Shown here in pieces: positions 6,890 to 36,857 of a stretch of DNA of 64,000 nt. A model generated the notes under the pieces. That model ran no database searches and was not told the origin of the DNA. It saw only the letters and a list, made by a program, of their open reading frames with translations. Positions within the stretch are counted from its first letter, which is position 1. Each line of letters begins with the position of its first letter. The DNA comes from Yuukianura sp. NJ FZ-2021 (lineage: Eukaryota). The stretch is taken from the NCBI GenBank assembly GCA_046563655.1, contig CM102285.1, positions 8,184,001 through 8,248,000 of the forward strand, read 5' to 3'. The position numbers were made by a program, and so were the translations under genes.

Positions 6890-9800
6890 GTACAAGTGTA
6901 TGTGAAAAGTGTTTAGTAGTGTCTTGACCTTTGAGTGCATAAGTGAAGTGGTAGGTGAAGGTGAAGTGAAAGTTCAAGAGTCAAGTGACTTGTTGCAAGT
7001 GAGTGAAAAGCTTAGTAATACTGTGTCATACCAATATGGCGTCGTTTCCAATTATGAGACTGAGGAAGTCAAATGGCATGAAAAACAAAACACCTGCGCT
7101 ATCAAAGGTTCGTATTTTAAGCTTAGAGTCAGTAGTAGCAGTAGCAGATTTTAAAAATTACTTTGTAGTTTTCATGTGGATTTCAAAATTCCAGAGGTTC
7201 GTGCAAGTTTACATGTAAAAATTATCAAACTTTGGATGAACACACGGAAAGCCATCACGAGTGCTTTCACTGTGGGAAAAGTTTTATGAACAAAGGCAAT
7301 GATCACAAGTGTAACCAAGTCGGCCGTGGCTCAAACAGATTTCTTGGACCCAAGCCTCAAGAAATTGACCCTTCCGTTTTTCAGGAATCAACATTTTCCT
7401 GTCGCGGGTCTGTCCTTATTTATGTTCATCAGGTTCCAGACAGTGACCCACCAGTCACAATGGTGTCGCTATTGATGCAACAGCTCTATACACCATTTGT
7501 AAAACTTTTGACTCAGCTGCTGGAGCATTACAAGGGAATTCGAATTTCTCTTAAGCTAATTGTGAACATGGTGGAGCTCAAGTACAACTTTAGATTCCCG
7601 AATGCTGCAATTTCGAGTCCATTTACCATTCTCACTCATGCAAATTACATTCCACGAGTGTTTCTGCAAACTACATCCTTTGTCATTGAATCGTTGAACC
7701 TATTTTTGCAAAGAGGAAGTGACTGGACAGTGGAACGTATAAAGCGTGTTGAAGTTCACTGCGGCATGTACAAACCATTGCCAGGGCGTGGGTACATTCC
7801 ACTTCCAAAAGAATTAAAGGGACGTCAAGGGCTAGTCAACATAAAAACGTCCAATTGCTTTGAGCTGTCAATTTACTGCAGCATTTTTGGAGACAGTATT
7901 GTGAAAGAAAAGCTGCTCGAAAGAAGATTGATTGGAGCAAAACTTCCAACAAATATTCCAAAATTTAGAAACAGGATACTTTCCAAACCAGCTTCATATG
8001 ATACACTGGTTAAACTGGATCTCTTGAAGCTCACGCCCCAGTTGAGGAGAGATGGCGTAACGATGCTTGACTTTGATGTGGTGGAAGAAATGAACAAGGA
8101 ATTGTCTTTGAACTTGTATCGTTTAGACCACGGTCAGATTGAAATTTCTCGAATTGCCCCGACGGTCAAGAAATACCACGTTAATCTTCTTCAAATTGAA
8201 AATGGGACGGCGGCTCACTTCGTCGCCATTACCGACTTTGGCAAACTTAATGCCACATTTCAAAGAAAAAAAAAGTACGACTATTGTCCAAGGTGTCACA
8301 AAAAGTTTCTTGCCAAACGCAAAAGTATTAATTCACACTTGTGCGGCACACAAGTAGTGACTACAATTTCGAAAAAAAAGTACTTTGAATTTGAAAAGTG
8401 GGATCAAATGCTTCAGTCCCCATTCCTAATGTACCACAAATTTCATTACGTGAATGATGAAACTACAGACTCCAGTGACGCCCGAGTCCACTCGGAAAAG
8501 ATTCCAGTTGGATTTTCGTATTTTTTAATGGAACAAGGAAAGGTTGTCGTTTCTGGTACTTATATTGGGCTGGACGCCATGCAAGCATTTTTAAACATTG
8601 CTCTGGGATGCGCAGATGAAGTTATTCACAACATTAAGACAGTCAACTACCCAATACACTGGACTGCAGAGCAACAACAGCGACACCAAGAAGCGTTGGA
8701 ATGCGAAATTTGTCTAGGTATGTTGGCAATGTAAAAGTAAGATAAGCACAAATTTAAGTTAGTTAATGTTACATTGAGCTTTTGATGATGGTCAACTGTG
8801 CTCTGACGGCAGAAGTTTTTGAAAAGCAACGAAGCGTCAATTGGACAGAATTTGGTCTTGAACTGGCCGCTAGCTGGACAGTCAATGGCTATTCTTTCAA
8901 CGCAGCTGCATTAGTCGGCAAAGTTAAAATTGAATACTTGGCCGATGAAGAGTTTATCGCAGACGTTGAGAACGGGCTGATGGCTGGAATTCAAGTGGTC
9001 AACAAGCGCAAGGTCATTTGTAACACGGATCGTTTTGGACCCGAATACTTGGACCCAACCAAGGAAAGGATTGAATGCCTAAGCTGTGACGTCACTGGCA
9101 GCTATCCTTCCGTGTGTCTCGGACTGCTTCCGATTGGAGATTATAGACGCATGTCACAAGAAGAAATTGATGCTTTTGACTTTGTGAACCCGCCTTGGAA
9201 CGAGTCAAGGGTTTATGTTTTTGTCTGTGACCTCCACTACCCAAACGATGTCCACGATAGACTATCTGCATTTGTGTGTCCGCCAGAGAAACGACGGATA
9301 GATTTGGAAACGCTCTCTCCGCTCCAGCAAGAATTTGTCACGTCAACAAACAAAATTTTGACACCAGAATACTTGTTACTAACTCTATGGGACAAGAACG
9401 GTATAGTTTTGCACCACCAACTTTTGGCAATGTCGCTCCGTTTGGGCGCGGTTCTCAAGAAAGTTCTTAGAGGGTACAGTTTTGCTCAAGCGCCAATTTA
9501 CGCTGGATATGTGAGACACAACTTGCAAAAACGACTAGAAGCCAAGACAAAAACTGAAAAGGAACTTGCAAAACTAGCCAACGTATCTCTAAGTGGCAAA
9601 TTTCTTAGTGACACTGGAGCATACAGCAGGTCACAGCTCTGTAAAACTGCAAGTGGCGCCAAAAGGCTGTTGGCATCTGACGTTTTTGAAAATTTTGAAA
9701 TTATAAACCAAGATGTCACGCTATTTCAATTGAAAAAAAAAAGCAGTCAAGGGGAAAAATTTAAAACTAATTGGACTATGCATCTAGAACATTTCCAAGG

Positions 9801-10381
9801 CAGTGTTGTATTCTTATGTTTACGATCACATTTACCCAGCATTCAACTACAAAATGGAAATGATAATGTGCAATACGGATTCATTTTTTGGCGAATATCA
9901 AAATGACCATGGCACATTTTTGAAAAAGTTGAAATCCTTGGCGCCAATTTTTGACTTTTCGGACCAAGAAGGGGAACTTTTTGACGACAGGAACAAAGGA
10001 AGGCCCGGTGTTTTCAAAATATGCAACTTGAACGTTCAAGAGGCGTATTTCATTTCTCCAACACAATACAGCCTTCAACTTTTTCCAAAAAGAGATGGAT
10101 TTAATTGGACTGAAAAGCTCAAAGTAGGGGGGTTGGAACGACAATTTGCAGCTACTAACCTAAGGCACCAACAATTCAGGGATCATGTGGAGAGGGAGGA
10201 GTTGGAGCAAGACATTGTTTCTGTCGAAAGCCTACGGTTCACCGGAGAGACAATTAACAATATAAAAATTAATCGAAAATCCATCGGAGCATGGGACTTG
10301 AAGAGGTTCTTTGTTTCTAATCGAGAATCCTATGCTTTTGGACATTTTCGACAAATCAACAACAATGCACACCCCAATTAA
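6890..10381 (+). pseudogene. Polinton-type protein-primed PolB paralog with N-terminal C2H2 fingers; catalytic motifs largely substituted; internal deletion ~8720-8770; frameshift near A-run ~9733-9742
   Basis: RGSDW..YKPLPGRGYIPLP..LVNIK..NCF (pPolB N-terminal signature); CEIC (start of HNH insert); motif A CDVTGSYP; motif B KLANVSLSGKF; motif C CNTDS; C-terminal DLKRF..ESYAFGHF. Confidence 0.85.
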
Positions 10382-10514
10382 CAGAAACTCCAGGACACCT
10401 GGCAGCGTCCTGGAATTAACAAACCAACCGAGACTGACGCCAAGGTCTTATTTGCATTCTAGTCAAGTCCAGGCAAAGTTCAACGTCAAACACCCAACCA
10501 AGTCAATACTTGCA

Positions 10515-11036
10515 ATGGAGGTCATTTTGTGCAAAGTAAAGGAAGATTTTGAGAGCGGCCATGTTAAAGAAATCATGGCGGCTAGCATGGTGGAGAAGAG
10601 AGCCAGGATAACCACAAAACATGAAGAACACACCGAAGCCTATTCCATTTCGGAATGCTTTCTAAAGCTTCTCGAAGAAAATGGACAAAAGGGATTGGAA
10701 AATCAAATTCTAGGAGCCAAAGTTATTTTGTGTGTTGACGCACAAACAAAGTCCATTTTGAAATTAGCAAAATTTGAAAAAGAAAAGAAGCTTCAACTTT
10801 TGCGAACTTTGATGGTGACCCCGAGCGCCTGCGTTGACCAAAACTTGAACCGATATCAGTTTGGATTAATACTAAAAGAGGCAAGAAACTCGATTTGGAA
10901 AAACCAAGTGTGGACACGGCTTCTCGGCAAACGAATTAAAGGTAATTTATTTCCATTTAAAACTAGTGTCATCACAATATGGTACGCTACAATGCTCTTG
11001 ACTATTTCCATTACAAAATATTTTTGTAGAATCTAA
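10515..11036 (+). CDS. Small hypothetical protein, possibly Polinton accessory family
   Basis: ATG 10515 open to 11036 immediately after pPolB; no firm motif. Confidence 0.4.
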   Translation: MEVILCKVKEDFESGHVKEIMAASMVEKRARITTKHEEHTEAYSISECFLKLLEENGQKGLENQILGAKVILCVDAQTKSILKLAKFEKEKKLQLLRTLMVTPSACVDQNLNRYQFGLILKEARNSIWKNQVWTRLLGKRIKGNLFPFKTSVITIWYATMLLTISITKYFCRI

Positions 11037-11353
11037 ATGATAGGGCAAAAACTCTCCAGAATCCGAATTTACAGACAGCTTAACACTAGCTCCCTCGTAA
11101 TAACCCCTACCAACTAAAACTTTGTAAAAGGTATCAAATTCTTGAAACCAAACATTAATATTAGTCAACTCTACTTGACATCGCAAATTTTTTACAATGA
11201 TTGCTTTGGTCAAAATTTCGTCTTTAATACGATCTAAAAGTTCAGATTCGCTAATTGCCAAAACTGTACATAACCTATTTTGCCACTTGAACTGTGGAAC
11301 GTCATACTTGATGAGGTCTTGCGCAGTTTTCCCAATTAAAGCGGAATCGGGCT
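10947..11353 (-). CDS. Small hypothetical protein with Cys/His-rich C-terminus, convergent with previous ORF
   Basis: Open frame extends upstream of the listed ORF to an acceptor-like TTTTTTTAG near 11353; ends FCNGNSQEHCSVPYC. Confidence 0.35.
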
Positions 11354-11817
11354 AAAAAAATTCAATTTTTTCAACTTTGGAATTTTAACAATGTAGTGTT
11401 TCAACTTACGCAACAGTGCCGTTTACGGAAAACTTTGTATTTTTCCCTGGGGGTTTTGATTAACCCGGGCGGTATATACGCAATAGAAGTGGCGCATTTT
11501 GGTAAGATTACATTTATTTCGTTTAAGGTAGTTTTCGGAACCGGAAGTGGTAGGGCACCCATTTCATAATTATCGGCTGAAGCGTCCCAGTCTTCATCGA
11601 TCTATTTTTAAATTTAGTTTTGCGTAAAAATTTTTAATACTTTTTGAAAATTTTTGCGAATCTTTTACATGTTTGTCTAATTTTGAACGAGTGAATTTAC
11701 TAAGACCATCATTCCATTCAGCAGCAGCCTAAAACAAATTTATTAACTATACTTCAACTCATTTTACTTTATTTTGTAGCGAGACCAGTACCGCGATAAG
11801 GAAAAAATTTCCAAGCT

Positions 11818-12147
11818 ATGTCAAATCGGCCGGCGGAACCTAACCTTTCTTCTGATTCGGAAACCAACAGTGAGCCAGAAAGTGAAAATAAGGAGAATGA
11901 CATTGAGCAAGGACGAGCCAACTTGACCTTTCCCCAATACAGCCCAATATCATCGTCCGGGAGTCCGGAAGTGGTGACCCCTGTCTCGAGTCCCCTAAAA
12001 TCCCTCAACAACATCTCCCTGGTCCCGTTGCCACCATGCTATTCGGAGGAGTTGTATTGTCCCGAGTTCCCAGAAATGTACTTAGGATCTTTCATGGGAC
12101 ACTGCTACACTGACAAGGCTCCCAATAGTTTTTACAATAGCTTTTAA
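11818..12147 (+). CDS. Ser/Glu/Pro-rich hypothetical protein (109 aa)
   Basis: ATG-initiated ORF, AATAAA at ~12309; no recognisable domain. Confidence 0.35.
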   Translation: MSNRPAEPNLSSDSETNSEPESENKENDIEQGRANLTFPQYSPISSSGSPEVVTPVSSPLKSLNNISLVPLPPCYSEELYCPEFPEMYLGSFMGHCYTDKAPNSFYNSF

Positions 12148-12689
12148 GTTTTGTGAGACTTGACTAATTTTGTGACTAGTTTTAAATTGTTTTTCATTCA
12201 TTTTAAAATGCTAAAGTTTGAAAAGTTTTATGCCATTTTTGATTACTTGCTAGTCATAAGAAGTCACTTTTCCTTTTCCCCTTGTATCTTTAGTATTAGA
12301 TTTCATTGAATAAATACACACATTTGTACTGCAAAACTGCTGACGTTTGAAAAACAAAATCATTTTTGCGAAAAGGAACGTGAGAAGGAAGCAATTTCAA
12401 AGGGCCAGTATTTTATGGCCATTTTCATTATTTTAAAGATAGTCAACTAGGAGCCTTGCTTAAATTTCAGTCCATTTTCAAAATAGCTTTTGAGTGTTTC
12501 GGACAGTTCTTTCAAATCAGTCTAACAATGGGTAAGTTTAAAAGTCATCCAATTTTCTCGATTTTTAAAACCTATACAATTAAAAATTGATAATTTAGAA
12601 TGTCAAAAAGTTCAAAACTGCTTCGACTGTGTCAATACGGCCTGTTCTTGGTGGGTAAATGTCGGAGGTCAAAAGTCTTAAACGCCGCC

Positions 12690-13148
12690 TTGACCCCATT
12701 TCAAATTACATTCAAGTACTCTGAAAAAGAATCCTTGTTGACTTATACGCGTGAATCTACGCACAATTACATTACACGCCTCTCCCCCTTATTGGACCAA
12801 ATATTTGGACTTCCCCCTGGAACTGCATTTCATGATCACACCCAAACACAACCAGCAAAAGCAGAGATTGACCTTGGGGTCACATCACAGCACATGCTTG
12901 TTACTTGCGATCTCGCCTCCTATTCCCAAGTTGGCCAGCTTTCACTTCCCTTGATTGGATTGTTTAAGCAAGAGGGAAAGGAGGGAACTCCTGTCCATCT
13001 GGTTATCAACAACCCCCGCTACTTTCCAGTAAAAAGGGAGCAACTGATTGATTCTACCCGCATTCAGCCTTTGGACGAGTACCAGGCACCTCTCTCTGAA
13101 GGTCAAGGGCCAACCCTACTCGCTCTCCATGTCCGAAGCAACCCCTAG
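12690..13148 (+). pseudogene. Polinton minor capsid (penton) protein, C-terminal fragment
   Basis: MLVTCDLASYSQVGQLSLPLIG...NPRYFPV...IQPLDEYQ...TLLALHVR matches the vxCDxvxxqxvG..pll..P.Y.Pv..D..LH.r pattern of Polinton pentons. Confidence 0.75.
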
Positions 13149-13192
13149 GTATTACGACGTTGACCCCTCCCGACCACGTCTTCCCGAGTTGT

Positions 13193-14902
13193 TCATCGAG
13201 GACTAACGACTTTTAATGTACCAGTTAAATGGTCATGATCGCGACATCTCTCAGTAAACTTGTCAAATCTATGACCACATATGTGGCAGTGCGTAGCATT
13301 ACTGTAGGCCATTTCTTCTGCCTGTGTCATCCTGAAAGGTACGTTGATGTCGTAGATTTCCATAATAATTTTGCCAATTTCCAAGCACTCTTCTAGAAAT
13401 ACCTCAATCGCATCGTTTCCTCTATAAACACGAAACGTCACTAGTTCTTGATGTGAGTTCACTAAGGCATATGAAAACCCAGAAGGTACGTGCCGTTTTT
13501 CTTTCACAGTACTTGAGTAGTCATGCTGCGGCGGCATGTCAGCATACATAACGTAGCCAGCTTTCATTTGGTTGGCAAAATTTTCAAATGAAATTTCTTT
13601 TCGGTCTTCTGGCATTTTAACTTTTTGAGCCGCAAATTTCTCACAGCCTACGCGATGTAAATTCAGCAAACAACGACGATCACAAGCTGAGTTTCTGCAT
13701 GTGCTTGGACACATTTTTATTCTCTGAAGGCAATTAAAGCACAAAGCACGTTTTCTGCAGTTCTGTTTCCCTAAGAGTCTGTCTATGTCACGAATTGCAA
13801 CAAAATGCAATGCATTTGTTTTTTTGTTGGTCAAAAGTAGCAAATTTGCAGTGCGGGCATCTGTATAATTAAACTCAGATATTTGCAAAGGATACAAACC
13901 TTGGAGACTATCATGCCCAAACACATTCACAGCAACGCCGTTAGTAAGTTCAAATTGGCGAATTGCCCGGAGTGAAACTGGGAAGGATACCGTAGTGAAG
14001 TCATAAAGACTTTCTAGCTCCAGATAGGAATTCGGCCTTGAAGCTTATTTTTTGTTGGAGATTTTGTGTACCGACGCCAGAAAAGCCCATTTGAAGCAAA
14101 AATTTCCTTTGGTTTTGATGTTGATGGTTGCTCTTTTACGTTGCAAGTACTTTGGCAAATTTCGCCAGGATCCTCCCGTCAAAGCATTAAACTTTGCAAT
14201 TCGTATGTCAGATCCATAAACTTTTCCAAATTGCCACCCGGAACCGTATGTTTCGAAGATGCTTATGGAATGTTCAATCTTTGTGAGACACATTTGCAAA
14301 AACCGGCTAAGGCTGTGGTGATTGTTGAGTATGACAATCATGTTCGAGTTCACCATTTTCTGCTGATATTCATACACATCATTGCCGTCTATTGATTTGA
14401 AGAGAAAGCGTTGAAATTGAACTTTCACAGAAATTTGGCTCTTGACACAATTGAAGGTCCTCAAGCACTCATTAATAATGTGATGTATCTGATCGCTCAA
14501 CTTATAAAAGTACATATTCAAGTTTTCAATTGGTTTTTTTTTGCAATTGTGACAATATGTTCTGATGTATCCTTTGAAAGCTTGAATTTTTTGGAATGGG
14601 TGAATATCCAACTTTCGTCTTTGAGTCATTGAGCCACCACTTTGAATTCTCCTGGTTAAAATCCTTGCAGCACTTTTATGAATTAGCTTGGAATGCTTAG
14701 TAGCTCTATGCCTTTCCAGGTCCAAGTGTCGGTGAAAAGATTTTGAGCAAACTAAGCGCTTGTTAATAGGCTTTCGAGGTCTGCTAAGGCGCCTCGCATT
14801 GAATCGCCGGCATTTTGACAAATGCACCAAAAAATGTTGCTTGTTAGTTGAAACTTTCAGACAGAGTTCGCACCTCAGCGTGGAAAGTTGGATATCTTCC
14901 AT
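13193..14902 (-). pseudogene. Second pPolB (N-terminal half, with HNH/endonuclease VII insert), one in-frame stop at 14045-14047, truncated after the HNH
   Basis: N-terminal C2H2 fingers; YGSGW..GGSW..LP..ATINIK..CFKWA; YVMYAD (ExoI); CHICG..RCRDHDHLTG; ORFs 14045..14902 and 13193..13930 are in the same frame. Confidence 0.88.
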
Positions 14903-15567
14903 TTTCTAAAAACAAAAAAGACAAAATAAATTCCAAACGGAAATGCTCGGAACCTTTTTCATTCCTATTTCCACCGTCCGATGGCGTCGGCAGGGAGACA
15001 GTATTTAAATTGCCACGACCATTGCCATTTTAAAAAATAAAACAATCAATGTTAGCTGTAATGTTCAAGGACTAATAATATTTCCTTCGTAAAAATTTTA
15101 ACTGAATGAATTAATAGAATGCTTACAAACAGGTTATGAGGAGCCTTTACGTTCCTTAAAGGGTGTAAGTCCTTTTTGTCCCTTAAAGAGTGTAAGTCCT
15201 TTTTGTGTTTAATGATGGGAGGTTTTAGTGACGATAAGTAGAATTAAATTCTAATACGTGCAAAGTGTAAAGCTTAAGAGATAAAATGCAAAATTGCAAT
15301 TTCAAAGTTTTAGTTTTAGAGAAATCAGCAAAATTGCAACTTCAGAAATCCAACTTAAGAGAAATTAGCAAAATTGCAACTTCAGAATTTTCAAAAATTG
15401 CATTTTCCCATGAAGCGAAGCCCTAACTTTTGATTTTCACACGATTCAGATTGTTTCAAAACCGATAAATTTTGATTCAGTCGAGTACTATCAGTGATAC
15501 AGTCAACAACTACCAAACAACACTTACCAAACAACCAAAAGCCTTGTGTCAGAGTTGCAGTTACAAG

Positions 15568-17180
15568 ATGAGTTACAAGCTACGGAAAGATAATCAAAAG
15601 GATTTTTAACTTAGCTTGTTTTTTGTTGATGATTTCTAATTCTATTATTTGAAATGATTTCTAATTATATTTGATAAAATGTGTTTTTAGTTTCGACATT
15701 TGACGAAGAAGAAGAAGGCGAACCGGAAATTGTGGATTTGGATGAAACGTCGTTTCAAAATGGGTAGAAGGCTGATGCGGCCTTTGCATCGGCTTCCAGG
15801 AAAAACCCCATAAGTAGGAGCCAGCAATTTAAAGAAGCCGTCAAGGAAAAAATGTCGGCAGCCGCTGCAGGAGTTGAGGTAAGTTGTCTAAGAAAAAGTT
15901 TTTTGAAAGAGTTTTAAATGTAAAATGTAACTATTGGTTCATCAGTTCTGTCAATTGTTATTAGCATTACTTTATCCCATTATTAGGATTCGGATCCTGA
16001 GTTTGTTGTGGGTGAGGACGAAGGAGAAGGCGAAGAAGAGTCGGAGGAAGACGAAGTAGATGACGAAAACGAGGACGAGGAAGAAGGCGAGGAAGATCCG
16101 GAAGCATCCGAAGATGAGTTAGTTTCTGCGCTTAAAAAACGCAATTCTAAGGAACTGGCAATTCGCCAAATTGGAAAAGAGCCCGAATTTCTAAAGGTAA
16201 TTTTTGTTCAAAGTATACCTACTAAATGCTCTTCATAATATTTAAGTTTATCGCCAAGCTCGTTTCTTGCAGCGAACTGCTGATGAAACGAAAGCAGGTT
16301 CCGGAGTTGGTCTGAAGTCAAAAGCAGAACCTTCTGTCAGAGCCAAACCAGGTCAGCGACCGAAAACCCCGTCAAGCGTTGTAAAGAAGTCGCGAAGTCT
16401 CACTGATGTGAACAAAAGAGGGAAGGAAAAGGTGAATCAAAACAAGCTTGTAATAAATGGTTGTGCAATGATTTGTGGCGTAAAATTTGTTTACTTTTGA
16501 TATCCAGATTACCTACGGGGTTCAGAAACCAAAGCTCAAACGGCAAAATGTGATGCCGTTACCTGACCTTCCAGTCGGTGTAAAAAGCATGCTCCCTCCG
16601 AAAAAAGCTCATGGTAGAAAGGTAAATTTAGCTACAATCTAACCTAAATACTTCTGGGATTTTATGTTAGCTTTCTTGAGTGTAAATCTTTGATTTTGTA
16701 TACGATATAGAACGCTCCAAGAGCATTGCAGAAACGGAAGACAGAAATTTATACTGACTCGGACGCATCGTCTTCCTATGAACCACATAAAAAGAAAGGA
16801 CGAAAGCGAACGGGATTAGAGTACGAAGAGGACGGAGACGAGGATGATGAAGACGTAAGATACATATAACTCCTATAATTTGCACTTAGTTGCGACAGGG
16901 CTAATGACAGTTTTAATTTCTCAATTAGGACTTGGTTCTTGACTTGGCTCCAGCCGATCATAACACCAAGGGAAAGCAAATTCGGAGCGGATCCGTGCAC
17001 ATTGGACTCGACGTCCATGTCAAGTGGCACAAGTTTCGCGGGGCACACTATGTGATGATACGACACATGGTGAACGGTGTCGTAGATGGGAGAAGAGGCA
17101 TAAACATCAACATGCAGTATCTTCCGAACCTCAAGAGGGCCATCGACAAAGCGCATGAGTGCTACATGGAGGCACAGTGA
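15568..17180 (+). CDS. Multi-exon (~7 exons) acidic/basic protein with C-terminal PC4/Sub1-like ssDNA-binding domain; possibly degraded
   Basis: Last exon HIGLDVHVKWHKFRGAHYVMIRH..DGRRGININ..LPNLK..ID resembles the PC4 core (IG..V.V..FKG...IDIR..GRKGISL); donors at ~15879, 16197, 16432, 16622, 16855; E/D-rich exon 16008-16196; AATAAA ~17214. Confidence 0.7.
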
Positions 17181-17782
17181 ACACAAATTATTATTTGTTT
17201 CAAATAATTTTTCAATAAAATACATTGTGCTTCACCTTAACTTGATTTTTCATTATTGTCAATTTTTAAAAAAGTGAATATTTGCTTTAATATAACACTT
17301 CTTGGTAGTTAAGAAGTTGCAATTTTATTTCATTTGAGAATTTTTTGTTTTAGATTTTTTTGAAGATTGTTCATTGTTTGTTGTATTCACATTTTTTGCC
17401 AAAATTCATTTCATTTCTTCATCATTTTTCTTGTCCCGTTTACGGTCTCTTGCAAATCGTCGCCTATGACGTCTGCGATTAATTACGTCATCTGGTTTTA
17501 TCTGCCAAATGAAAACAAATCTAATTCAGTCAAAGTCGGTAATATGAACCTAATCTTTTGTGTTATGAACGCATCAAACGGAGTTCTTACAACTTCATGT
17601 TGCGTGATGACCCAATTTTGGGCTCCCTGTGCTGATTTCCCCGTGCCCATCCGGCGATAAATGGTATTGAATTTCTACGAATGAACGAAAATAAAGTTAC
17701 TAAAAGCAAATAGTTTACATATGGAATACGAATAGCAAATGGTTTCATCTACGTTACTTAGCCTCATAAACACCCTAACTTC

Positions 17783-24888: not shown

Positions 24889-26300
24889 ATGACAAGGATG
24901 ATAGGATTTATTTCGGTTTGGGTGATGACCTTGATCTGTACAACAACCACAATGGCTACCGTTCCCAGTTACGAGAACGAGGACACCATTCGCTGTCACG
25001 AAGGGATGGAGTACCCTATGAGGAGAAGGAGACAAATTTTGGTTAGTGGAATCAGAAGTGGAAAACTTCAAATTTAACTTGGGACGTCAAAGAAGACATT
25101 CCCAATACGATGGATTTTCAAGATCTGATAGAGAACTTCGAGTTTGCTTTTCAAAAATGGGAAGAAATTTCTAATTTTACGTTTAGTCGTAGAATCAATG
25201 AAACTGTAGACATTTCAATTCAATTTGCAAAAGGCTATCATGGCGACGTCATGGTTTTTGACGGTGTAGGTGGGATCCTAGCATATGCCTATTACCCGAA
25301 TGTTGGGTTAGGCGGAGACATTCATTTTGATGCAGCCGAAAATTGGACTACCACGCCTGGTAGAAAAGGAGTAGATGTATTTTCAGTTATGATTCACGAG
25401 ATAGGGCATGCACTAGGCTTATCACACTCTGAAGTACCAGGATCAGTGATGCATCCGATGTATCATCTCATTGACAAAAATATGTCTATTGGAAAAAAGG
25501 ATAGAAGGGATGATCTTTATAGATTTAGTCGCAATCTATCGCATGGTAGGAGAGACGCATTCCCTACCTTGGATAACTTGATACAAGGTATGTGTAAGGA
25601 GAGTTTGGAACATGGTTTAAAGTGGGGAAATGAGTTCTTCATTTTTAATGACAACTACCATTATCGCATTTCAAAGGGGAAAGTCTCTTTTCCGTATAAA
25701 GTTTTCAATACCAACTATTTTCAACATTACCCTCCGAACATGGGAATTGAGTTAATTTTCCGATTTTATGAGAAAACATTTATCATTGGTGATGATCAAC
25801 TCTGGGAGTTTGGGTTCGCAGCAACATTATCACCCTGGTATCCCAAACCAATGGCAGAACTAGGAATCAATGAAACTAGGGTTATCGGTGTGTTGTCATC
25901 CCCAAAACGACTATATTTACAGTTGGAGAACGGCTGGAAACAGTACTATGTACATCAAAGATTCCTGCAAGAATGGACCTACTCACAAGGTATGCTACCC
26001 CAACTAACTAATCTCAACCAGGCGTTTAACGTAATTGATATCCATCCGGAGGGCTACACCACGTATAATGGTAGCCATATTTTAGACTTTGACACCAATC
26101 TGGTCTTACACTCAGTGAAGCCTTTGATGGACTATTTGGAGTTGCCATGCAATTCCGCTGAGGCTTTGGTAGTGTCGGAACCTATCGGTGGCCTACCATT
26201 AACAGGAATAGCTTTGGCTAGTACCACCGTTGTAGTCATAGCTGTGGTATTAGTTTGCTGGTTTTGCACCTACGGTTATGCTATTTATGCTATTTATTGA
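24889..26300 (+). CDS. Intronless membrane-type matrix metalloproteinase (signal, short pro-region, catalytic domain, hemopexin-like domain, TM), one 1-nt frameshift at ~25050
   Basis: HEIGHALGLSH zinc site, SVMHP Met-turn, HGD..FDG.GG.LA.AY.P and GGDIHFD..E.W; RRRR furin site followed (shifted frame) by KWKTSNLTW; C-terminal hydrophobic helix LASTTVVVIAVVLVCWFC. Confidence 0.92.
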
Positions 26301-27012: not shown

Positions 27013-27350
27013 AGTTAGTGGTAACTGTTTACCAGAAGAAAATAGGTCAAGCCCCCTCCCCATACCCCTAGCCCCTGTCCATTCACCCCGGTACATTGTT
27101 AAAGGTTTTACCCCGTGGCAATTGATGAGTGGTGGATTGAAGACAGTACAGTTATTAAAAACAAAAAATAAATTAATAAAGAATAATTTCTTTAAATTAT
27201 TTAAATATTATTTGTAGTTAACATTTAAACTAAATTTAATTTTAAAAGTGTTATACAAAAAAAAATCAAAAAAAATCCGAGATTCGAACTCGCGTCAACC
27301 ACTACCTCTCTTTTTTGTTACTGTCCCTCTACACCGCCAAGCAATTCTGG
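27013..27350 (+). repeat. Polinton-like terminal inverted repeat (copy 1)
   Basis: First 56 nt (AGTTAGTGGTAACTGTTTACCAG...CATACCCC) are the exact reverse complement of 42325-42380; weaker similarity continues (TTCGAACTCGCGTC at ~27283). Confidence 0.8.
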
Positions 27351-27651: not shown

Positions 27652-28840
27652 ATGGAGGTAAGTCAATCAAATTTGGAACAAGTTCGCACAAAATGTAATT
27701 TATTTATTTTATTTATTTCAGAACGAATTGGACAACGTCATCGTAGATCCGGACTTTAAGCCAGAAGGGGTTGTCGTCGAAGGGGTATTTTTTTCTACTA
27801 TATTTTGAAAATGTTTCTCAAATTCTAATACAAGTTTAAATTAATTTAGCCACAGTTATACAACCTGCGCACGGCGCCTGTTCCTTCGCAACTAATTGTA
27901 TAATTTCACATTCCCACCCAACGATTTGACAATTGGGGGGAATTAAAGAAACGGAAAGAAACGCTACCACGATTCCACGATATGAACATCACGAACGTGT
28001 TCTGGGTACGACGCGTCGGTGACGGGCCGGCAGCGGAAAATCAGAAACAGCGAAACTACCAATGGCAAGCATATGTTGGCTTTGGCACAGAAGAAAATGA
28101 GTTTGCGCCGTAAGAAACTTTTTAAATCAACAATTACTTTTGTAGTAATCAACTATTTAAAATTATTAAAACAACTTTTTTCTCTGTATAGTTACCATTG
28201 GGTACTTATAACTGAGAAAACGCCGCCCCATGTGAAAGCCATGGTGACGACGGCGCGAAAAAGAATGCAAGGGATGAGGGACGCACAACGCTTTTTTCCG
28301 CCTCCTGTAGGCCAGCACGACTAGACCAGCTCGGTTTCCGGCCCAGGATTGAGGTAAGCTCATTTTTTCATGGAAAGTAACTTTGATTTAATTTTATTTG
28401 CATTAATTTTAGCCTTCAAGACCAGACTACTACATTTGTTACAAATGTCGCTGCACTTTTCCTGGCCTCGGATATTTAAGGAGGCACAACTGCTATCACA
28501 CTGCGGAATTGGCACTCAAACGACGCAACTAGTGCATAGCATCGCAACTCAGACTCCACCATCTGAGGAATGTCTCCCAGGACCTTCACGAGGAGGAATT
28601 CTTCCCGACTTTTCCACACTAAAATGTCAAAAGTGTGAAATGAAATTTTCAAAAAAGGCAAACTTCAAGCGTCACTATTTTACGATGCACCTTACAATGG
28701 GCATCAATAACGAAATGCACTACAAATACGAGTGCCGCTGTAGATACCAAACAAACCGATACGACAACTATATGCGCCACGTTTTAGGATGTAACATTGT
28801 ATTAGGTGTTAGGTGCCGGATTGAACTCGACCTCTTTTAG
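27652..28840 (+). CDS. Subterminal multi-exon gene (region) ending in a C2H2 zinc finger plus CRC motif; possibly degraded
   Basis: First exon ATG GAG|GTAAGT; exon DPDFKPEGVVVE; last exon CQKC..FKRH..H..YECRCRYQT.R.DNY.RHV..C; homologous to 40602-41739 (-). Confidence 0.65.
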
Positions 28841-29248: not shown

Positions 29249-29675
29249 GTGGTAACTGTTTACCAGAAAAAAAATAGGTCAAGCCCCCTCCCCATACCCC
29301 CAGCCCTTGTCCGTTCACCCCGCTCAAATGCAATTTACCCCGGGGCCTGTAGTAGAGTGAAAAGAAAGAAGAAGAACTTTTAAAACATTATTCAAACAAA
29401 TTAGTAATTTATTAATAAAGTAAATTTAAATTATTAATTAAATTATTGTTAAATATAATTTATAAACTAAAAAAAACAAATAAAAAAAATGAAAAAAAAA
29501 TATAAAAAAAATCTAATTTCGAACTCGCGTCTTTTTCTTTCTCTCTATTTTCTGAACTGTGTCTCTGCACCACTTCACCATCAAGGCAGTGTTGTAAATC
29601 TCCAAAAAAAAAAAACAAACTCATGAACTTCACACTGAAAGTTGAGTTTACATTTTTGATTGTTGTAAGATTTCT
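29249..29675 (+). repeat. Left TIR (~430 bp) of the central Polinton
   Basis: Highly similar reverse complement of ~41949-42375, including the long AT-rich tract; extreme terminus degraded. Confidence 0.9.
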
Positions 29676-29959
29676 AACGTTTTTTCCTTATATGACGTTC
29701 GGAGTTGACCTTTTGCAGTTGGATAAAAAGTCTGCCAAAAAAGAAAATGTAGTGTTTTAGCGCTTTTCAGCGCTCTTCCAAACTTCCCCATAAGTTAAGT
29801 TTTGTGTCCAGAGTGGCGGTTACTTTTGAGTCACCACCACTCTCTCAAAATCACATAGTTTTGGCACTCAATGTTTGAGTGCCGCCCAGCAAACACTTAT
29901 ATTAGTTTTAAGTATTGGATTAAATAAATAAGTACATTTATTTAAATTGCCGAATACAC

Positions 29960-30728
29960 CACAGAAAAGATTGGCTTCATTCTCATCTGCATGGACTTGT
30001 TTAGCCGCTTTGTTTGGACAGAGTTCTGTGTGAATAAGACAGCACGAGTAGTTTTGGAGGCAATGAAGAAAGTCTTCAAGAAAGCCGGGGTAAATGTCTT
30101 CTTTCCTCTCCCTTCAAGTCAATTTACACTCTATCATTTTTTTTCTCAGCATCTTCCGCATTTTTTGGCTTCCGGTTTTGGAAAAGAATTCAAGAATAAA
30201 ACCCTTTTGAAATATTTGGAAGCCAATGACATTCACAGCAATTCCCCGAGAACTGCGAGAAAAGTTTCACAGGTAGGCTATTGACCCCAAAAACAAAACG
30301 ACGGTTTTTATAAACGTCTACCACACATTGATAAATTCAAAACCAGAAAAGCCAAAATTCAAGGTAACAATTAAACATTCGCTTTGTTTTATTTAAACAG
30401 TCTTTTTTCCACAGGTGAATCAGCTCGTGAGGGTCGCAAAAAAGCTGCTAACTTTTGAAAAAGCTTCAACGTCACAATCGTACTCTACGGAAGTCTTTAG
30501 GTAAAGAAGCATATTTGCCCTGTTTTGGAATGTATGCCAAGCGTTTCTTTTTTTATAGGATTAGAAAGGCAATCAGCGCAGTGCCTCCTTTTTACTATCT
30601 TGAGACGCTGAAAAAGGAGGAGATTAAAGGTAACCATTTTAGACGAAATATGCCTGTTGACAAAGCCACGTCTATTTCTTTTTTTAGGAAGTTTCTTAAA
30701 CGAAGATTTGACCCCAGTGACTGCATAA
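29960..30728 (+). pseudogene. Polinton rve integrase with spliceosomal introns (30090-30149, 30364-30414, 30501-30558, 30630-30687, extra donor 30273); partially deleted
   Basis: FILICMDLFSRFVW..NKT; SGFGKEFKN (TDxGxEF with D replaced by G); spliced C-terminus KPKFK|VNQLVRV..FEK..YSTEVFR|IRK..YYLETL..EEIK|GSFLNEDL..*; phases restore the frame; stop ends 1 nt before the next ATG. Confidence 0.85.
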
Positions 30729-30729
30729 A

Positions 30730-31482
30730 ATGTATCCGTTTTCACGCTTCGTGACTCTAGGTTCTACTTTCTTCCCCTCATTCTTCCCATCTAATAATAC
30801 AAGTTCTTTTCGAAATAAGCTTTTGGACAGTATTCCTTTGCAAAAGAATCTCCCGCTAGAAGATGCAGTTTGTAATTTGTGGTACCCCGCAACGCCAGAC
30901 ACTGGAAAGTATACGATTTTTGCCCATGAACCCGACGACAATGTCGTTTCCTTGGTTCAGCGCTTCGAATCGAGCATGGAAGTGTTTCGAGCCGAAAGTG
31001 AAAGTTAAATTGAAACAATTAACAAATGCAATACGAATTTTGCAATATTCAACAACAAGCTGACATTTCTATTGGACGTAGAAGAAGGAAGGGACTTTTT
31101 AACATTTCGCAACAATGACGCTGGCTACGACGTGAAAATTCCAGAAGTCTATGCGCGTGCTCTCGGATTTACAAAAAATGTGTTTGGCCAGGGTGAAACT
31201 AGCGCGCCGTTGTCTCCAAGCCAAGCAGCGTTGGACGCAATTGACATTTCAGAGCCGCTAAAGTTTACTGTTTTTCGTGAAGTCAGTTCTACTGTAAAGG
31301 TCAATGAACCCAAGGTAAAGACGGTCAAAGGCGTAGTTAGTGAAATCAACGTTGCTTTGAAGCAGATGAAAATTTCATTTTCCTACGACGAAAGCAAGCT
31401 CAGCGTCAACGGTGTCTACGGAAGTGGCTATAGTGTTCGTCTCTCGGAATTTCTTGAAAAAACTTTTGGCCTCAAAACTCCA
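30730..31482 (+). pseudogene. Polinton minor capsid protein, N-terminal part, interrupted by BEL insertion
   Basis: FVTLGS..FFPSNNTSSFRNKL..IPL..EDAVCNLWYP matches the penton N-terminus (fyvTLpS..fp.Nt.s.F...L...i.l..wev.l..i.yP). Confidence 0.75.
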
Positions 31483-31855
31483 TGTTGGTTTATCTACAGC
31501 AACACTTCCTCCCCGATGTTGTGGCTTTATACCACATAGATTTTACAAATAACCAACAAACACAGACTTTTAGGATAGCGTCAACTTTAGCGTAAAAATA
31601 GGCATAGTGTTGACTTTTAGCCTTAGGTTATAGGTAGCGTCCTAACGGTCAAAAAAAGGAACAAGAATCAACACAACTTCAATAGTCTAAGTATAGGATA
31701 CAACATATAGTCATCTTTTTCACTTCAATTCATTAAGTCAGATTTTCAATTTCACTTTCTCACGATTAAGTTTAAATTAGTAAAAAATAAATCAAAATCA
31801 ATTTAAATCATCTTCATCTCCTCTCCCTACTGTTCATTTGCGACAAGTAGCAACA
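31483..31855 (+). repeat. BEL/Pao 5' LTR (373 bp)
   Basis: TGTTG...CAACA termini, AATAAA at ~31786, followed by PBS. Confidence 0.8.
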
Positions 31856-31860
31856 TTTTA

Positions 31861-31878
31861 TGGTGCCGAAAGCCGGGA
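31861..31878 (+). promoter_or_regulatory. Primer-binding site complementary to tRNA-Phe
   Basis: TGGTGCCGAAAGCCGGGA versus canonical TGGTGCCGAAACCCGGGA (17/18). Confidence 0.8.
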
Positions 31879-31995
31879 CCTTGAGCGGATGTCAACGGAA
31901 GACTACATGCAGCATCAACCGACGACAAACGTTTAAGGTCAAATCATCCACTAGCATTACAGTTTGGTTAATTGTTGTTTTCTGAGACTGACAGC

Positions 31996-34370
31996 ATGGC
32001 AGCAGGAACAAAAACAACATTGGCTGATCTTCTGAAGTTACGTCAGAGCCTGGGTCAACAAATTCAGATGCATCACAAGGTCATCGCTATGTACAATGAA
32101 CAAACACCAATTCCAACAATCAGAACAGCAGAACGGGAACTGACCAGAGTCAGGAATGACCTTGACCTACTCCACAACAAGATCATCATCGCCACGACAA
32201 ACGATGAAGATATTGAAGATCATTCAAGAACCTACATAGAGTTTGTCACTTTGATTGGTACCATGAATGAAACGCTGATCACAATACAGCCGGCTTCAAC
32301 TCCATCATCACTACCTGGTCCATCAGTTCTTTCAACTTCTGCACACTCACATCATCACAATGTCCATTCCTACTTTCCAAAGATGTCGTTACCAACTTTC
32401 GACGGAAAGTATGAAGACTGGCTGACATTTCGGGATTTATTCCGCAGCACAGTCATCAACAACACTACATTACCCAACAGTGTCAAGTTCTGGTACCTCC
32501 ACTCCGCCCTCAAGGGTGAAGCTGCTACCGTCATCAAGGGCACTCCCATCACGGATGACAACTTCCAAGGAGCATGGCAGCTGATGGAAGAACGCTATCA
32601 TAACCGCAGAGAGTTGATCTTCACATTAATTGAAAAACTGGTCAACTTCCCAAAACTGAAACAGGAGAATTCCGCTCAGTTGAGGAAACTAATCGAGTGC
32701 TTCAAGGAATCTCTCACACAGTTAGAGACCCTCAACGAACCAACACAACATTGGGATTCAATCATCGTCTATCTTCTCAAGGAAAAGATGGACCCAGACT
32801 GCCGTCGTGACTGGACGAAGCAACTAAAGGGCTCAGAGGTTCCAAATTTCTCCAACACTAAAGAATTTCTGGAAAACTATATCCGGGGACTCAAATCCAC
32901 TGGATCTTCATCGTCCTCCGGATCCTCTAGCCAAAGTAAGGCTCACTCCAGTTTCACGGAAAGCAAGTCCACAGAACAAAAACACAAGTTCACTTGTCCA
33001 CACTGCCAAGGTGAACATGGCTTGTTCAAATGTGATAAGTGGCTACAGTTGTCAGTGAAAGACAGATTTAACTTTGTCAAAAAGAAAAGTCTGTGTACTA
33101 ACTGTCTCAGCTCCAAGCACAGTGTAGGAAAGTGCCAGTCCAAGTACAGATGTCGGACATGTCAAGAGCCACACAACAATTTACTTCATTTTGACACAGC
33201 GAAGGCTCACTCCACGTCGCAACAAAATGATGTGGAGACTTCAACATTGGCAAATCATTGCTCCACGTCCAAAGTACTGTTGAGCACTGCGGTTGTCAAA
33301 CTAATCGACTCAGCCGGCGAATTCCAGGAGTGTCGTATCCTGTTGGATCAGGGGTCAGAGTCTAACTTTATCTCCGACCGCTGTGTGACAAAACTGGGAT
33401 TGGCACGTAAGAAGTCAAATGTAACCATTGTTGGTATTTCAGGTTCAAATGCTGGGAAGGCACTGGGTCAAGTCACATTTGACCTGTGCTCACGCATTTC
33501 CAATTTTAAAATTCATGTAAATGCACTAATTTTGCAAAGAGTCACAGGTTTCTTGCCTTCGTCCAAATCAATTCGCAGAAGTGGACTCATCTCATGGGGA
33601 TACAATTGGCAGATCCCGATTTCACAAATCCGAGAGATGTTGACATAATCCTCGGAGCCGAGTTCACCGCTTCAATCACACTCAGTGGCAAAATCATTGG
33701 TCCACCTCACACTCCAATTGCACAGGAGACAACATTTGGTTGGGTAGTTTCGGGGCCTACGGGTACAACCAGTCATCCCACCGTTCACGTCAACCATGCA
33801 ACTGTTGACATTTTACAAAAATTCTGGGAACTAGAGGAACTGCCCAAGCGACCAAACTACTCAATCGAGGAGCAATTTTGCGAGGACCATTTCATCGCTA
33901 CTCACACACGAAATGAGGAGGGAAGGTATGTCGTAAGGTTGCCATTAAATGAAAACATTTCTAAACTAGGTGACAGCCGCGACATCGCAGTGTGCAGACT
34001 CCAGCAAGTGGAAAAGAGGCTACGACTGAACCCAATTCATCATCCTGAATACATTAAGTTCATGGATGACTACCAAAAATTGGGTCACATGGAGGAAGTA
34101 CAACAAGGTCAACTTCCTTCTGGGTCGAAGGTCGTCTACCTCCCCCACCACTTTGTACTCAAGGAGTCCAGCACCACCACCAAACTCCGAGTCGTTTTCG
34201 ATGGCTCCGCAAAAACATCCAGTGACATTTCGCTCAACCAATGCCTTCAGGTGGGACCGACGGTACAAGATGACATTTTTTCCTTACTCCTTCGGTTTCG
34301 TAAGTACCCAATCGCACTAAAGGGTGATGTAACGAAAATGTACCGACAGTTTTTGGTTCGCCAACATTGA
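31996..34370 (+). pseudogene. BEL/Pao gag-pol (DUF1759-like gag, Cys/His knuckles, aspartic protease, RT start); frameshift ~33570; 3' truncated
   Basis: LPTFDG..W..F..LF; CPHC..H..C, CTNC..H..C, CRTC..HN.LLH; LLDQGSE; FWELE; YLPHH.V.K..TTKLRVVFDGS; GDVTKMYRQF. Confidence 0.93.
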
Positions 34371-34600
34371 CTTGGACATCCATCACAATAATGTGTTGGT
34401 GCTCTGTGATGCTGTTAAACCACAGGAATTCAAATCCAAGGCAGTTCGGCACATGAACATTTTACCTAGGCGAAAATTGAAAAAAGAGGAAGGAGTTAGA
34501 ATTGTACACGAAACCCCACGGCCATTGCTATACTTTCCTGTTGACATGGACCGGAAGGAAATTAATGAAATTGACCTAGGAATTTCATCGAACTGGAAAT
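34365..34600 (+). pseudogene. Minor capsid protein C-terminal part (continuation of the 30730 gene)
   Basis: IDLD..VLVLCDAVKPQEF...PLLYFPV...INEIDL, homologous to 12690-13148. Confidence 0.7.
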
Positions 34601-34838
34601 TAATGAAATAACCTAACCTAACCTAACCCGAATCGATCTCGTTTTTGAAAATATGAAACCAATCCCTCAACCTAACGATTTATATTCTGCCGTCGTACTT
34701 CATTTTCAAAATAAAACTTTGTGAAACCAATATAAATAATCTGCTCTCTTAGTTAGTCGTCATTTGACTTTCGTCGGATCCACAGGCCACATGCTTGAAG
34801 TTGTGTGTGAAGGTGAAAGTTGTAAGCTTTTAAAAAGA

Positions 34839-35171: not shown

Positions 35172-35209
35172 TCTTCACTCCAGCGTTAGTCGGTAGAGTT
35201 AGTCTCAAA

Positions 35210-35440
35210 ATGGCTTCAGTAAACACGCTTCCAGATACAAAGCCCAATTACGTCTCCCAACTCGATCTATTCTCAGTCCCCCCAACAGACATTAGTGTGC
35301 AACAAACAGAGTTCATCAAGATTATTCCAGTGAATACTGTAAAAGAAAATCCTCAAATCACACTCAACATTGGGCAGTTTCAATTCCCACCCAACGTTTA
35401 CTTGGATTTCTCATCTTCATACCTCTACCTAAAATGTTAC
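35210..35440 (+). pseudogene. Polinton major capsid protein, N-terminal ~75 aa only
   Basis: SQLDLFSVPPTDISV...P...YLDFSSSYLYLK matches the Polinton MCP start (seLdLFsvPpTq.si..YiDls.t.Ly.k). Confidence 0.8.
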
Positions 35441-36857
35441 TAATTACACGAGAAAATATTGGCCCTGTGATTCAAGTTACAAAGTTGAAGTCTATTGCCA
35501 ACAATGAGGAGCTGTCCAACTATGACCATACCCTTCCACAAAAAATAATTTTATATGCTGACATTAACTCCTGTTACAGCAAGTGCTTCTTGGGTAATTT
35601 ACCGTGCGGAAACTACAAAAAATTGAGAGCAGAGGAGATCATGAAGTTTGATTTCAACAAACCAGATTTTGACGAAGGCTGGGGTTACCTCTTTGAAGTC
35701 GACCTTGAATATCAAAGTGAAGCAGTAGTGAAAGAGTTCCTTTCAGACTTTCCCTTCCCGCAACAGAGACTCAAGGTTTCCGATCAAGAGCTTTCTCCAT
35801 TCCAGCGGGAGAGTTTGGGAGAAAAAACAAACATGGAACAAGAGCGAGTGCTTCTGACCCTCTACAAAAAAATACGACAAGTCTACTACGGAAAGTACCT
35901 CAAGTTCATGATTGACCATGGCGCAAAGGCAACAAAGTACTATTCAGTAGTTCGATTTCGGGAGTCTCCGATTTTTGCAAATTTTGCAGCTAGCAATGTT
36001 ATAGCTAGAAACCAAGCAAAGTTTCCTCTTCAAAAACAACTTCGGAAGCTTTTAAACAACTCGCTTTATGGGCAGATGCTGAAAAACAATGCAGATTACG
36101 TACGTTCAAAGACCATCAGATCTCGGTGGAAGCGAAAGCAGAACTTGCGAAAGCAACTTTCAAGTCGTTCGAGATTCGGGACGAAGACACTGCGCTTTTT
36201 GACTTTTCAAAAGGAGAAATCACCGATTACAATCTGCGCATGATTGGACTTGCAATACTTTCAAATGCAAGAATTATGCTCCACTCACACTACTATGACT
36301 GACTAAAACGTGAGTTTGGGGACAGGTGCCATCATGTGATGACTCATACTGACAGCATAGTTGCTGAAATCCACTGCAGCAGAGCCGAATACGTAGCTTG
36401 TCTGAAACGACTTTCGAATCGCTTCGACTTTTCTAATATACTGCCGTCATCCGAACTCTATGATTCTTCTCGGGCAGGAATACCTGGATTCTTGAAGATT
36501 CAAGCTGAAGGAATCAACGAATTTTACTCTACTTCCTGTTCCCAATATTCCATGGAAATTGATTCAGCACATTTGCAATCCAACATTCTGAAAGCGGGCG
36601 GAATTCCAAAAACAGAGGCCAAGGATCTGAGGCACGCTGATTTTAAGCGCGTAGTTGAGCATGGAGAGGCTTTGAAGAAAGTAAAAATTTCTACGGTGAA
36701 AATTTTACAAGACCAAATGTTAGTTGTCACAAGTAACCGCTCATCCCTCACCTCCAGCATCAACGCATCAAGATTTTTTGTGTCAAACGCAATTTCCCTT
36801 CCCTTTGGAGACAAGCGTATTGACACCATAGTTGATTATGATTTGAAAAATAATTAG
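35440..36857 (+). pseudogene. Third pPolB (polymerase domain only), frameshifted ~36120
   Basis: IANN..YD; LYADINSCY (motif A); GYLFEVDLEY; RKLLNNSLYGQ (motif B); MTHTDS (motif C); C-terminal SLPFGD. Confidence 0.87.

Follow-up and report, generated by a model that had tools for sequence, protein, structure and literature searches.

Three broken Polinton-type polymerase remnants within 30 kb of a Yuukianura sp. contig: probably piled-up insertions rather than a multi-polymerase element

Results and discussion

We analysed a stretch of 64,000 nucleotides from Yuukianura sp. NJ FZ-2021 (GenBank assembly GCA_046563655.1, contig CM102285.1, positions 8,184,001 to 8,248,000 of the forward strand), which is called the window in the following and whose first letter is position 1. 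A first-pass annotation had placed three genes for a protein-primed DNA polymerase belonging to family B (pPolB, or PolB for short) of the Polinton/Maverick type in it, and had left the choice between several Polintons piled up in one place and a giant element, or a lineage of elements, that carries more than one polymerase. Intact Polintons replicate by protein priming with the single pPolB that they encode, and insert by means of an rve integrase. The three stretches do belong to Polinton polymerases; each of them is, however, a dead remnant: copy 1 is internally deleted and broken in frame, copy 2 is truncated at its 3' end and copy 3 at its 5' end. The locus supports neither replication nor transposition today. 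We consider it likely that independent Polinton/Maverick insertions, two at the least and probably three, have piled up in the window and decayed there into fragments; the stops and frameshifts, the non-overlapping fragments and the foreign sequence between the copies all argue for the piling-up that had been proposed.

State of the three polymerase copies

Homology to PolB is present at all three places. The Pfam family DNA_pol_B_2 matched 35296-36243 (E 1.4e-8, 34.6 bits) and, with a score under the cut-off of 25.8 bits, 8767-9906 (E 7.7e-5, 22.2 bits). A hidden Markov model (HMM) built from the PolB open reading frames (ORFs) of 17 Polinton-like contigs recognised seven pieces of the window with E-values from 1e-19 to 1e-57, and no PolB piece beyond these seven was found among the 1240 window ORF pieces of at least 30 amino acids. 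In tblastn searches, all full-length references (15/15) gave the same three places with the same partial coverage. What had been taken for three polymerase genes is thus a set of partial pieces, copy 1 lying in three frames and copies 2 and 3 each being incomplete.

Remnant 1 extends over 7241-10381 on the forward strand; the gene had been started at 6890, and homology sets in only at 7241. Its first piece (7241-8734), which was delimited by tblastn with the 15 references, by blastp and by a motif alignment, comprises the N-terminal domain, a degenerate exonuclease motif I (ExoI; …YHKFH…) and the CxxC start of an HNH/EndoVII insert. The second piece (8770-9789) is read in a different frame and carries motif A (DVTGSYP) and motif B (KLANVSLSG), and the third (9725-10381), in yet another frame after a frameshift near 9750-9790, contributes motif C (NTDS) and the C-terminal end. 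Relative to the database homologue P0036, residues 8-482 align with 7310-8713, residues 679-1011 with 8770-9789 and residues 990-1191 with 9725-10351. Between 8734 and 8770, with about 55 bases between the pieces, approximately 196 reference residues are gone; the loss takes in what remains of the HNH insert as well as the ExoII region and stops about 70 residues ahead of motif A. This deletion is not an assembly slip, because a contig from a public sequencing run spans 6780-9095 with six differences.

Remnant 2 (13193-14905, reverse strand) corresponds to reference residues of about 1-550 and was matched by the PolB HMM in two pieces (E 1.4e-56 and 1.3e-27). It consists of the N-terminal domain, an ExoI motif in which the glutamate is replaced (YADMP) and the start of the HNH insert (CHIC…DHDHLTG), and then breaks off: its end reads …CHICGHRFDKFTERCRDHDHLTG, followed by unrelated residues and a stop. 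An additional in-frame stop is located at 14045-14047. No polymerase domain is present in this copy, and Pfam assigned no family to either of its pieces.

Remnant 3 is the converse case, covering only reference residues of about 740-1192 and beginning just before motif A. Its first piece (35410-36150, forward strand; reference residues of about 740-975) carries motif A (DINSCYS) and motif B (KLLNNSLYG); its second (36123-36857, forward strand) is read in another frame and contains motif C (HTDS) and the C-terminal end. The frame changes near 36120-36150, and a conserved block is interrupted by an in-frame stop at 36300-36302. Upstream of this remnant, nothing of the N-terminal 740 reference residues was detected. 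The ATG near 35440, which had been proposed as the start of the gene, lies inside the homologous stretch, which opens at 35410.

According to both the tblastn searches with the 15 references and the motif alignment, the ExoII region is lacking in all three copies, and copies 1 and 2 have a degenerate ExoI. A functional pPolB has an uninterrupted ORF with the motifs ExoI to ExoIII and A, B and C; none of the copies has this set. The view that the copies are mutually very divergent holds for the two pairs that overlap: copies 1 and 2 share 26% of residues over 231 amino acids and 21% over 470 amino acids, and copies 1 and 3 share 33% over 220 and 31% over 173 amino acids. Copies 2 and 3 are not comparable, because they have no residues in common. 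The C2H2 fingers that had been assigned to the N-termini exist as sub-threshold matches only (18.4 bits in copy 2 and 13.4 bits in copy 1, at a cut-off of 25.2 bits).

The polymerase family and related contigs

When 1.84 billion cluster representatives were searched with a profile made from two of the window pieces, 4656 relatives were retrieved at E<=1e-3. Full-length members are mostly about 1150 to 1340 amino acids long and have a common layout: a long N-terminal domain, ExoI, an HNH/EndoVII insert, ExoII and the polymerase motifs A, B and C. In some members a C2H2 finger stands ahead of the N-terminal domain, as in P0029, where the finger scores 27.6 bits and thereby exceeds the cut-off. 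The consensus of the relatives reads [FY]xDFE for ExoI, CxxC…DHxHxTGxxRGxxHxxCN for the insert (PF02945) and FHNxxxYD for ExoII. PF02945 (Endonuclease VII/HNH) was matched at E<=1e-3 in 7 of the 13 representatives scanned, and the HNH module is found between ExoI and ExoII in 12/12 full-length references displayed; because its position is the same in all twelve, we regard the insert as a family-wide feature. The best identity of any remnant to a representative of these clusters, formed at 50% identity, is about 43%. A word-based protein search with the longer lengths of remnant 3 gave no match, which is a weak negative, as shared words of five residues are required.

A pattern scan of IMG/VR with six of the representatives led to the 17 contigs mentioned above, all of which encode full or partial PolB relatives. 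Their gene content was assessed with Pfam on 82 ORFs of eight loci, drawn from 154 ORFs of at least 130 amino acids of 11 loci; PolB ORFs and overlapping antisense frames were left out of this set. Among the eight loci, a Pox_A32 ATPase was found in seven, an rve integrase in five, PF21738 in two and a virophage-type capsid in one. Exactly one PolB is present in 17/17 loci within the 4-16.5 kb of sequence available for each. In these contigs the penton gene precedes PolB by 4-8 kb on the upstream side; a capsid gene lies in this interval, and the ATPase is close by.

Lineages of the remnants

Trees were computed with 52 of 150 representatives (1100-1420 amino acids), the other 98 having been dropped for length. 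In the N-terminal tree, which contains the 52 sequences and two window pieces, copy 1 is the sister of P0036 with a support of 97 in the SH-like approximate likelihood ratio test (SH-aLRT), and both belong to a clade of five rows together with P0004, P0019 and P0052 (support 100), here called clade X; copy 2 lies outside. A re-run with 22 rows gave supports of 98 and 99. In the C-terminal tree, copy 3 groups with copy 1, P0036, P0004, P0019 and P0052 in a set of six rows (99). Bit scores point in the same direction: copy 2 reaches 172-180 bits with P0104, P0100 and P0041 of the main group, versus 76 with P0036 and 59 with P0001 of clade X, and copy 3 scores 125+128 bits with P0001 and 91+142 with P0036, versus 87+47 with P0100. 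Copy 2 keeps the main-group motifs YAD… and DHDHLTG, and copy 3 carries the motif C of clade X. Judged by sequence, remnants 1 and 3 are members of clade X, a divergent PolB subfamily, and remnant 2 looks like a member of the canonical main group.

Other Polinton genes in the window

In order to search for further Polinton genes, 316 ORFs of at least 90 amino acids from the 17 loci were clustered into 14 families, which include PolB, integrase (14 ORFs), ATPase (12), a family termed f4 (8 ORFs of 154-285 amino acids) and major capsid (5), and the HMMs of all 14 were searched against the 1240 window ORF pieces. Only PolB (the seven pieces), integrase and penton matched.

What is probably a decayed remnant of a Polinton-type rve integrase lies at 29946-30754 on the forward strand in several frames (hhalign with family f2: probability 97%, E 7.5e-11). 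Its piece 29946-30281 gave E 1.2e-10 in hmmsearch, versus 5.6e-7 for the Ty3/gypsy integrase of the same window, so that the remnant is nearer to the Polinton integrase family than the latter is. Pfam rve matched only at E 0.0043, and tblastn from the integrases of loci L017, L005 and L013 gave weak hits. Near PolB 1 and PolB 2, the family HMMs found no Polinton integrase.

The claim of two minor capsid proteins fared unevenly. The ORF at 12594-13148 (forward strand) plausibly represents the C-terminal 60% or so of a penton protein, with homology beginning near 12678 and an end reading …LALHVRS. It was aligned to f4 by hhalign at E 2.7e-4 (probability 42%, C-terminal 82 columns), its part 12594-13145 was the sole window piece matched by the f4 HMM (hmmsearch E 0.006), and it has a G-F/L motif and a …LHVR-type end in common with the family. 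That f4 encodes a penton follows from its predicted fold: the model computed from an alignment of eight sequences (predicted local distance difference test, pLDDT, 78.6) matches, in Foldseek, the pentons of mavirus (6g41, E 3e-9) and Sputnik and the penton bases of adenoviruses, as well as "minor capsid" and "penton" proteins in BFVD. The single-sequence AlphaFold model of the window ORF 12600-13145 had a pLDDT of 31.6 and was discarded. The second candidate (30721-31539, forward strand) would be the N-terminal 60% or so of a penton, interrupted by a stop at 31006-31008 and ending just past the G-F/L motif; its part 31009-31539 was linked to the family through its resemblance to 12594-13148 only (blastp E 2e-5 pairwise, tblastn E 0.003-0.004), and its direct comparison with f4 was insignificant (hhalign E 0.03). 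The existence of two penton remnants is therefore plausible, the first being moderately and the second weakly supported. With ORFs 12600-13145 and 30721-31539, the latter translated with an X in place of its stop, the word-based protein search gave no match, again a weak negative in view of the five-residue words needed.

Other hallmarks of a Polinton were not detected. The major capsid HMM (f6) had no match at E<=0.1 and the packaging ATPase HMM (f3) none at E<=1 among the 1240 pieces, the PF21738 double jelly-roll did not match any of 206 scanned ORFs of at least 70 amino acids, and Pox_A32 was absent from the Pfam scans. Comparison by hhalign with all 14 families gave nothing for the ORFs 10302-11036, 10947-11351 (reverse strand), 11800-12147, 16776-17231 (reverse strand) and 22712-23512. 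No terminal inverted repeats (TIRs) could be detected in inverted-repeat searches, the first-pass annotation having seen none between the two PolBs at 6.9-17.2 kb: inverted repeats of at least 40 nucleotides were limited to an interspersed repeat of about 430 bp in three copies, and within 6-18.5 kb the best inverted repeat has 39 nucleotides at 72%. The copies of the 430-bp repeat are 70-93% alike; 29249-29674 and 41949-42375 form an inverted pair (93%), and a third copy at 27013-27335 is direct. The inverted pair was rejected as a TIR, as the third, direct copy marks an interspersed repeat. The guess that this repeat is a tRNA-derived short interspersed element is unsupported, as scans for tRNAs and Rfam families returned nothing, either for the repeat or elsewhere in the window.

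Origin of the cluster

The arrangement of the pieces does not resemble an orderly single element, since the first penton remnant lies 2.2 kb downstream of PolB 1 and abuts the broken end of PolB 2. The integrase remnant, the second penton remnant, a BEL/Pao retrotransposon fragment and PolB remnant 3 follow each other in this order on one strand. Judging from order and strand only, remnant 3 probably formed one element with the integrase and penton remnants at 29.9-31.5 kb, and this element of 29.9-36.9 kb would have been gutted by a deletion and by the insertion of the BEL/Pao fragment. The latter (31972-34608, forward strand) consists of a gag gene (DUF1759, E 1.4e-39), a protease (Asp_protease_2) and the start of a reverse transcriptase; Pfam places its gag-protease part at 31972-33648 and a continuation to about 34.4 kb. 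It is situated between the second penton remnant and PolB remnant 3 and is not part of a Polinton.

Three PolB-like stretches within 30 kb, two of them sharing an unusual motif C, and the lack of a TIR between PolB 1 and PolB 2 would speak for two or three paralogous polymerases in a single Polinton-like element of very large size, or in a lineage of such elements. We regard this as extremely improbable: none of the three copies is intact or complete, the window has no major capsid gene, ATPase gene or bracketing TIR, retrotransposon fragments and a matrixin ORF (25047-26300) are placed inside the span, and 17/17 related contigs have a single PolB. The literature covered (PMC10748475) likewise describes one pPolB per element, no search aimed at reports of elements with two PolB genes having been made. 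The number of insertions would be reduced to two if remnants 2 and 3 were the halves of one PolB gene that was split by an inversion of about 22 kb (about 13.2-35.3 kb). Such an event could account for an N-terminal remnant on the reverse strand with its broken end at 13193 and a C-terminal remnant on the forward strand from 35410 on, as well as for their complementary coverage of the reference (about 1-550 and about 740-1192), and a placement of copy 2 as sister to clade X, to which copy 3 belongs, survives the approximately unbiased (AU) test. Yet the junction would still lack about 190-240 reference residues, the bit scores of the two copies prefer opposite groups (copy 2 the main group, copy 3 clade X), copy 2 stands outside clade X (branch support 99-100) and copy 3 inside (99), copy 2 has the main-group motifs DHDH and YAD versus the clade-X HTDS of copy 3, and the segment that would have been inverted contains the matrixin ORF and other unrelated sequence. 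We therefore think it very unlikely that the inversion took place; the two copies very probably do not derive from the same gene.

The juxtaposition could, finally, be an artefact of the assembly, in which repeats induced the mis-joining of different loci. The window contains an assembly gap (57324-57423), contigs from public runs break at 13104, 13164 and 13193 and have loose ends at 9682, 12681, 15306 and 15915, the summed depth varies, and the same sample has 9015-9291 in a second version. On the other hand, contigs from sample S1 cover 6780-9095, 12673-13193, 13164-15805 and 15776-17857 with 0-6 differences, contigs from a second organism cover 8981-12175 (about 5-10% different) and 13647-17152 (59 differences) with unchanged order, and the fragmentary state of each PolB is found within single contigs. 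Accordingly, the chance that a mis-assembly created the cluster is very small. Because the contigs of the second organism share it, the local order is no peculiarity of the present assembly, and the remnants are not recent. They are shared, at least in part, between the data of two organisms (8981-12175 and 13332-17152 in the second), which fits old insertions.

Several points weigh against a pile-up of independent insertions as we propose it. Element boundaries are not defined, and for this reason the number of insertions, two or three, had to be inferred. No intact parent with a single PolB was found for any remnant, copies elsewhere in the genome not having been counted. The lineage assignment depends on deep trees, given that the best identity is about 43%; their branches are long and deep, and joins of long branches were flagged in the N-terminal and the C-terminal tree. 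The AU test (22 rows, LG+G4) does not reject a grouping of copy 2 with clade X (p 0.68), so that phylogeny alone is compatible with a shared lineage of copies 2 and 3, and in this comparison the constrained tree even outscored the quick free search. Moreover, no single run contig spans all junctions. A pile-up of independent insertions nevertheless remains the reading that we consider likely.

Sequencing data and surrounding sequence

Words sampled from 6800-16700 were recovered at 61-87% in three runs of one sample and at 26% in a run of another organism. In the former (runs X1, X2 and X3), the contigs diverge just upstream of 12681, where the penton homology begins, which suggests that other versions of the penton gene exist in the genome of that sample. 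The contig of the second organism that matches 8981-12175 (run X4, 6188 letters) has a first part of 2947 letters that does not lie on 5500-8980 at 90% likeness; the PolB frame of the window is continuous across 8981 despite this differing left part. The second version of 9015-9291 seen in S1 shares letters with the same X4 contig. Parts of 5500-8971 are uncovered in X4, where missing contig cover is not evidence of absence. Three joints (6183>8813, 6188>9678 and 8729>8768) were disregarded, since each was seen in one contig and had sides of 21-30 letters.

The window comes from an animal genome and is rich in repeats and in debris of mobile elements. Pfam identified a Ty3/gypsy pol (reverse transcriptase, RNase H and integrase) at 2-1939, to which the rve match at this place belongs, and a Copia reverse transcriptase at 5229-6725. 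The matrixin ORF between PolB remnants 2 and 3 (forward strand, 417 amino acids) is uninterrupted; its catalytic domain was matched at E 3.2e-44 and hemopexin weakly, its C-terminus is hydrophobic, and no pro-domain was seen within the ORF. Five ORF pieces at 57759-61924 (reverse strand) match consecutive positions 1-250 of the SNF sodium:neurotransmitter symporter profile and are exons of a host gene with introns, beside the assembly gap.

Two C2H2 zinc-finger ORFs, 28358-28840 (forward strand) and 40829-40608 (reverse strand), are paralogues with 49% identity over 75 amino acids; as candidates for PolB N-termini they were rejected, being unrelated to them by blastp and HMM. The ORF 37118-37525 (forward strand) consists of tandem TTEPP repeats, is rich in threonine and proline and resembles mucins or extensins. 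A direct repeat pair of 424 bp (37852-38275 and 39981-40404; 99.8% identical, 2129 bp apart) looks like the long terminal repeats of a small young element or like a recent duplication. The ORF fragment 42961-43335 (forward strand) matches Pfam Monjiviricetes_fusion above the cut-off (E 1.8e-9, 36.6 bits) and may be a captured env gene or come from an endogenous negative-strand RNA virus, as its glycoprotein; more forward-strand ORFs follow up to about 46000, these neighbours having no Pfam match.

The divergent motif C and comparison with known systems

The observation that motif C lacks its first aspartate, with NTDS in copy 1 and HTDS in copy 3, was borne out. In family B polymerases, the second aspartate of DTD and the aspartate of motif A are metal ligands; the first aspartate of DTD aids activity and is not a ligand. 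Full-length references outside clade X have DTDS (46/48) or DTDC (2/48), and the clade members themselves vary: P0036 has NTDS, P0052 ETDS, P0004 DTDG and P0019 DTDS. Among the 110 representatives with a readable motif C, eight have an xTDS motif, namely NTDS in P0036 and P0003, HTDS in P0001 and P0108, ETDS in P0052, P0078 and P0109, and YTDS in P0067. Copies 1 and 3 have some of their best matches in P0036 and in the shorter proteins P0001, P0003, P0067 and P0108. NTDS and HTDS are consequently a signature of the lineage and not a result of local decay, as they are shared with eight database representatives. The xTDS proteins keep the aspartate of motif A, the lysine of motif B and the TDS; the aromatic residue of motif B is often lost (…LSG, …IAG or …LTG versus [YF]G), copy 1 having SLSG, and the Exo motifs are degenerate in several members of the clade.

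The polymerases of the window belong to the same family as those of the 17 contigs with integrase, A32-type ATPase, penton and double jelly-roll capsid genes, and the window has probable integrase and penton remnants; what distinguishes it from a Polinton/Maverick proper is that it holds no complete element, no major capsid, ATPase or TIRs, and broken PolBs throughout. Decay of this kind is the usual state of known loci: 96% of 3,511 vertebrate Maverick loci are reported to be mutationally degraded, and coexisting Mavericks are named in some genomes (Barreat and Katzourakis, PMC8097293). Jeong et al. (2023, PMC10748475) described two pPolB classes with 16% identity that occupy separate Polintons in the genome of one nematode; they also reported that nuclease domains are inserted in pPolB and that functional elements have conserved Exo and Pol motifs. 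Their pPolB2 with its HNH or VSR insert resembles the relatives of the window copies, which carry the EndoVII/HNH module CxxC…DHxH…CN (copies 1 and 2 retain its start), and both cases involve very divergent pPolB classes, which in the nematode genome reside in separate elements. It differs in that the insert is presented there as a synapomorphy of one branch, whereas it is family-wide here, and in that those polymerases keep all Exo and Pol motifs, whereas the clade-X relatives do not. According to the account of Krupovic et al. (2016, PMC5499653), an inactivated pPolB fused to a helicase occurs in polinton-like viruses, Tlr1 and transpovirons, which is a precedent for Polinton-related polymerases that lost catalytic residues and persist as a lineage. 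In contrast to these, no helicase fusion was seen in the window, and clade X keeps the aspartate of motif A, the lysine of motif B and the TDS of motif C.

With respect to the biology of Polintons, the window offers no evidence for multi-polymerase or giant elements, which is a useful negative outcome. Degraded Polinton/Maverick loci, and several divergent lineages per genome, are already documented, and the locus is thus of little general importance; for annotators, it provides remnants that have no close relative among the 1.84 billion cluster representatives. That remnants 1 and 3 document an undescribed subfamily of Polinton pPolB with a non-canonical active site is a tentative idea drawn from sequence comparison, which we hold to be rather doubtful. 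If it were true, clade X could encode a polymerase of altered chemistry or, alternatively, one kept for a task other than catalysis, for example in priming, as terminal protein or as HNH nuclease. The xTDS subfamily is only a mildly new point; its motif C, together with the altered motif B, would provide a recognisable marker of a PolB subfamily, which is perhaps useful to annotators.

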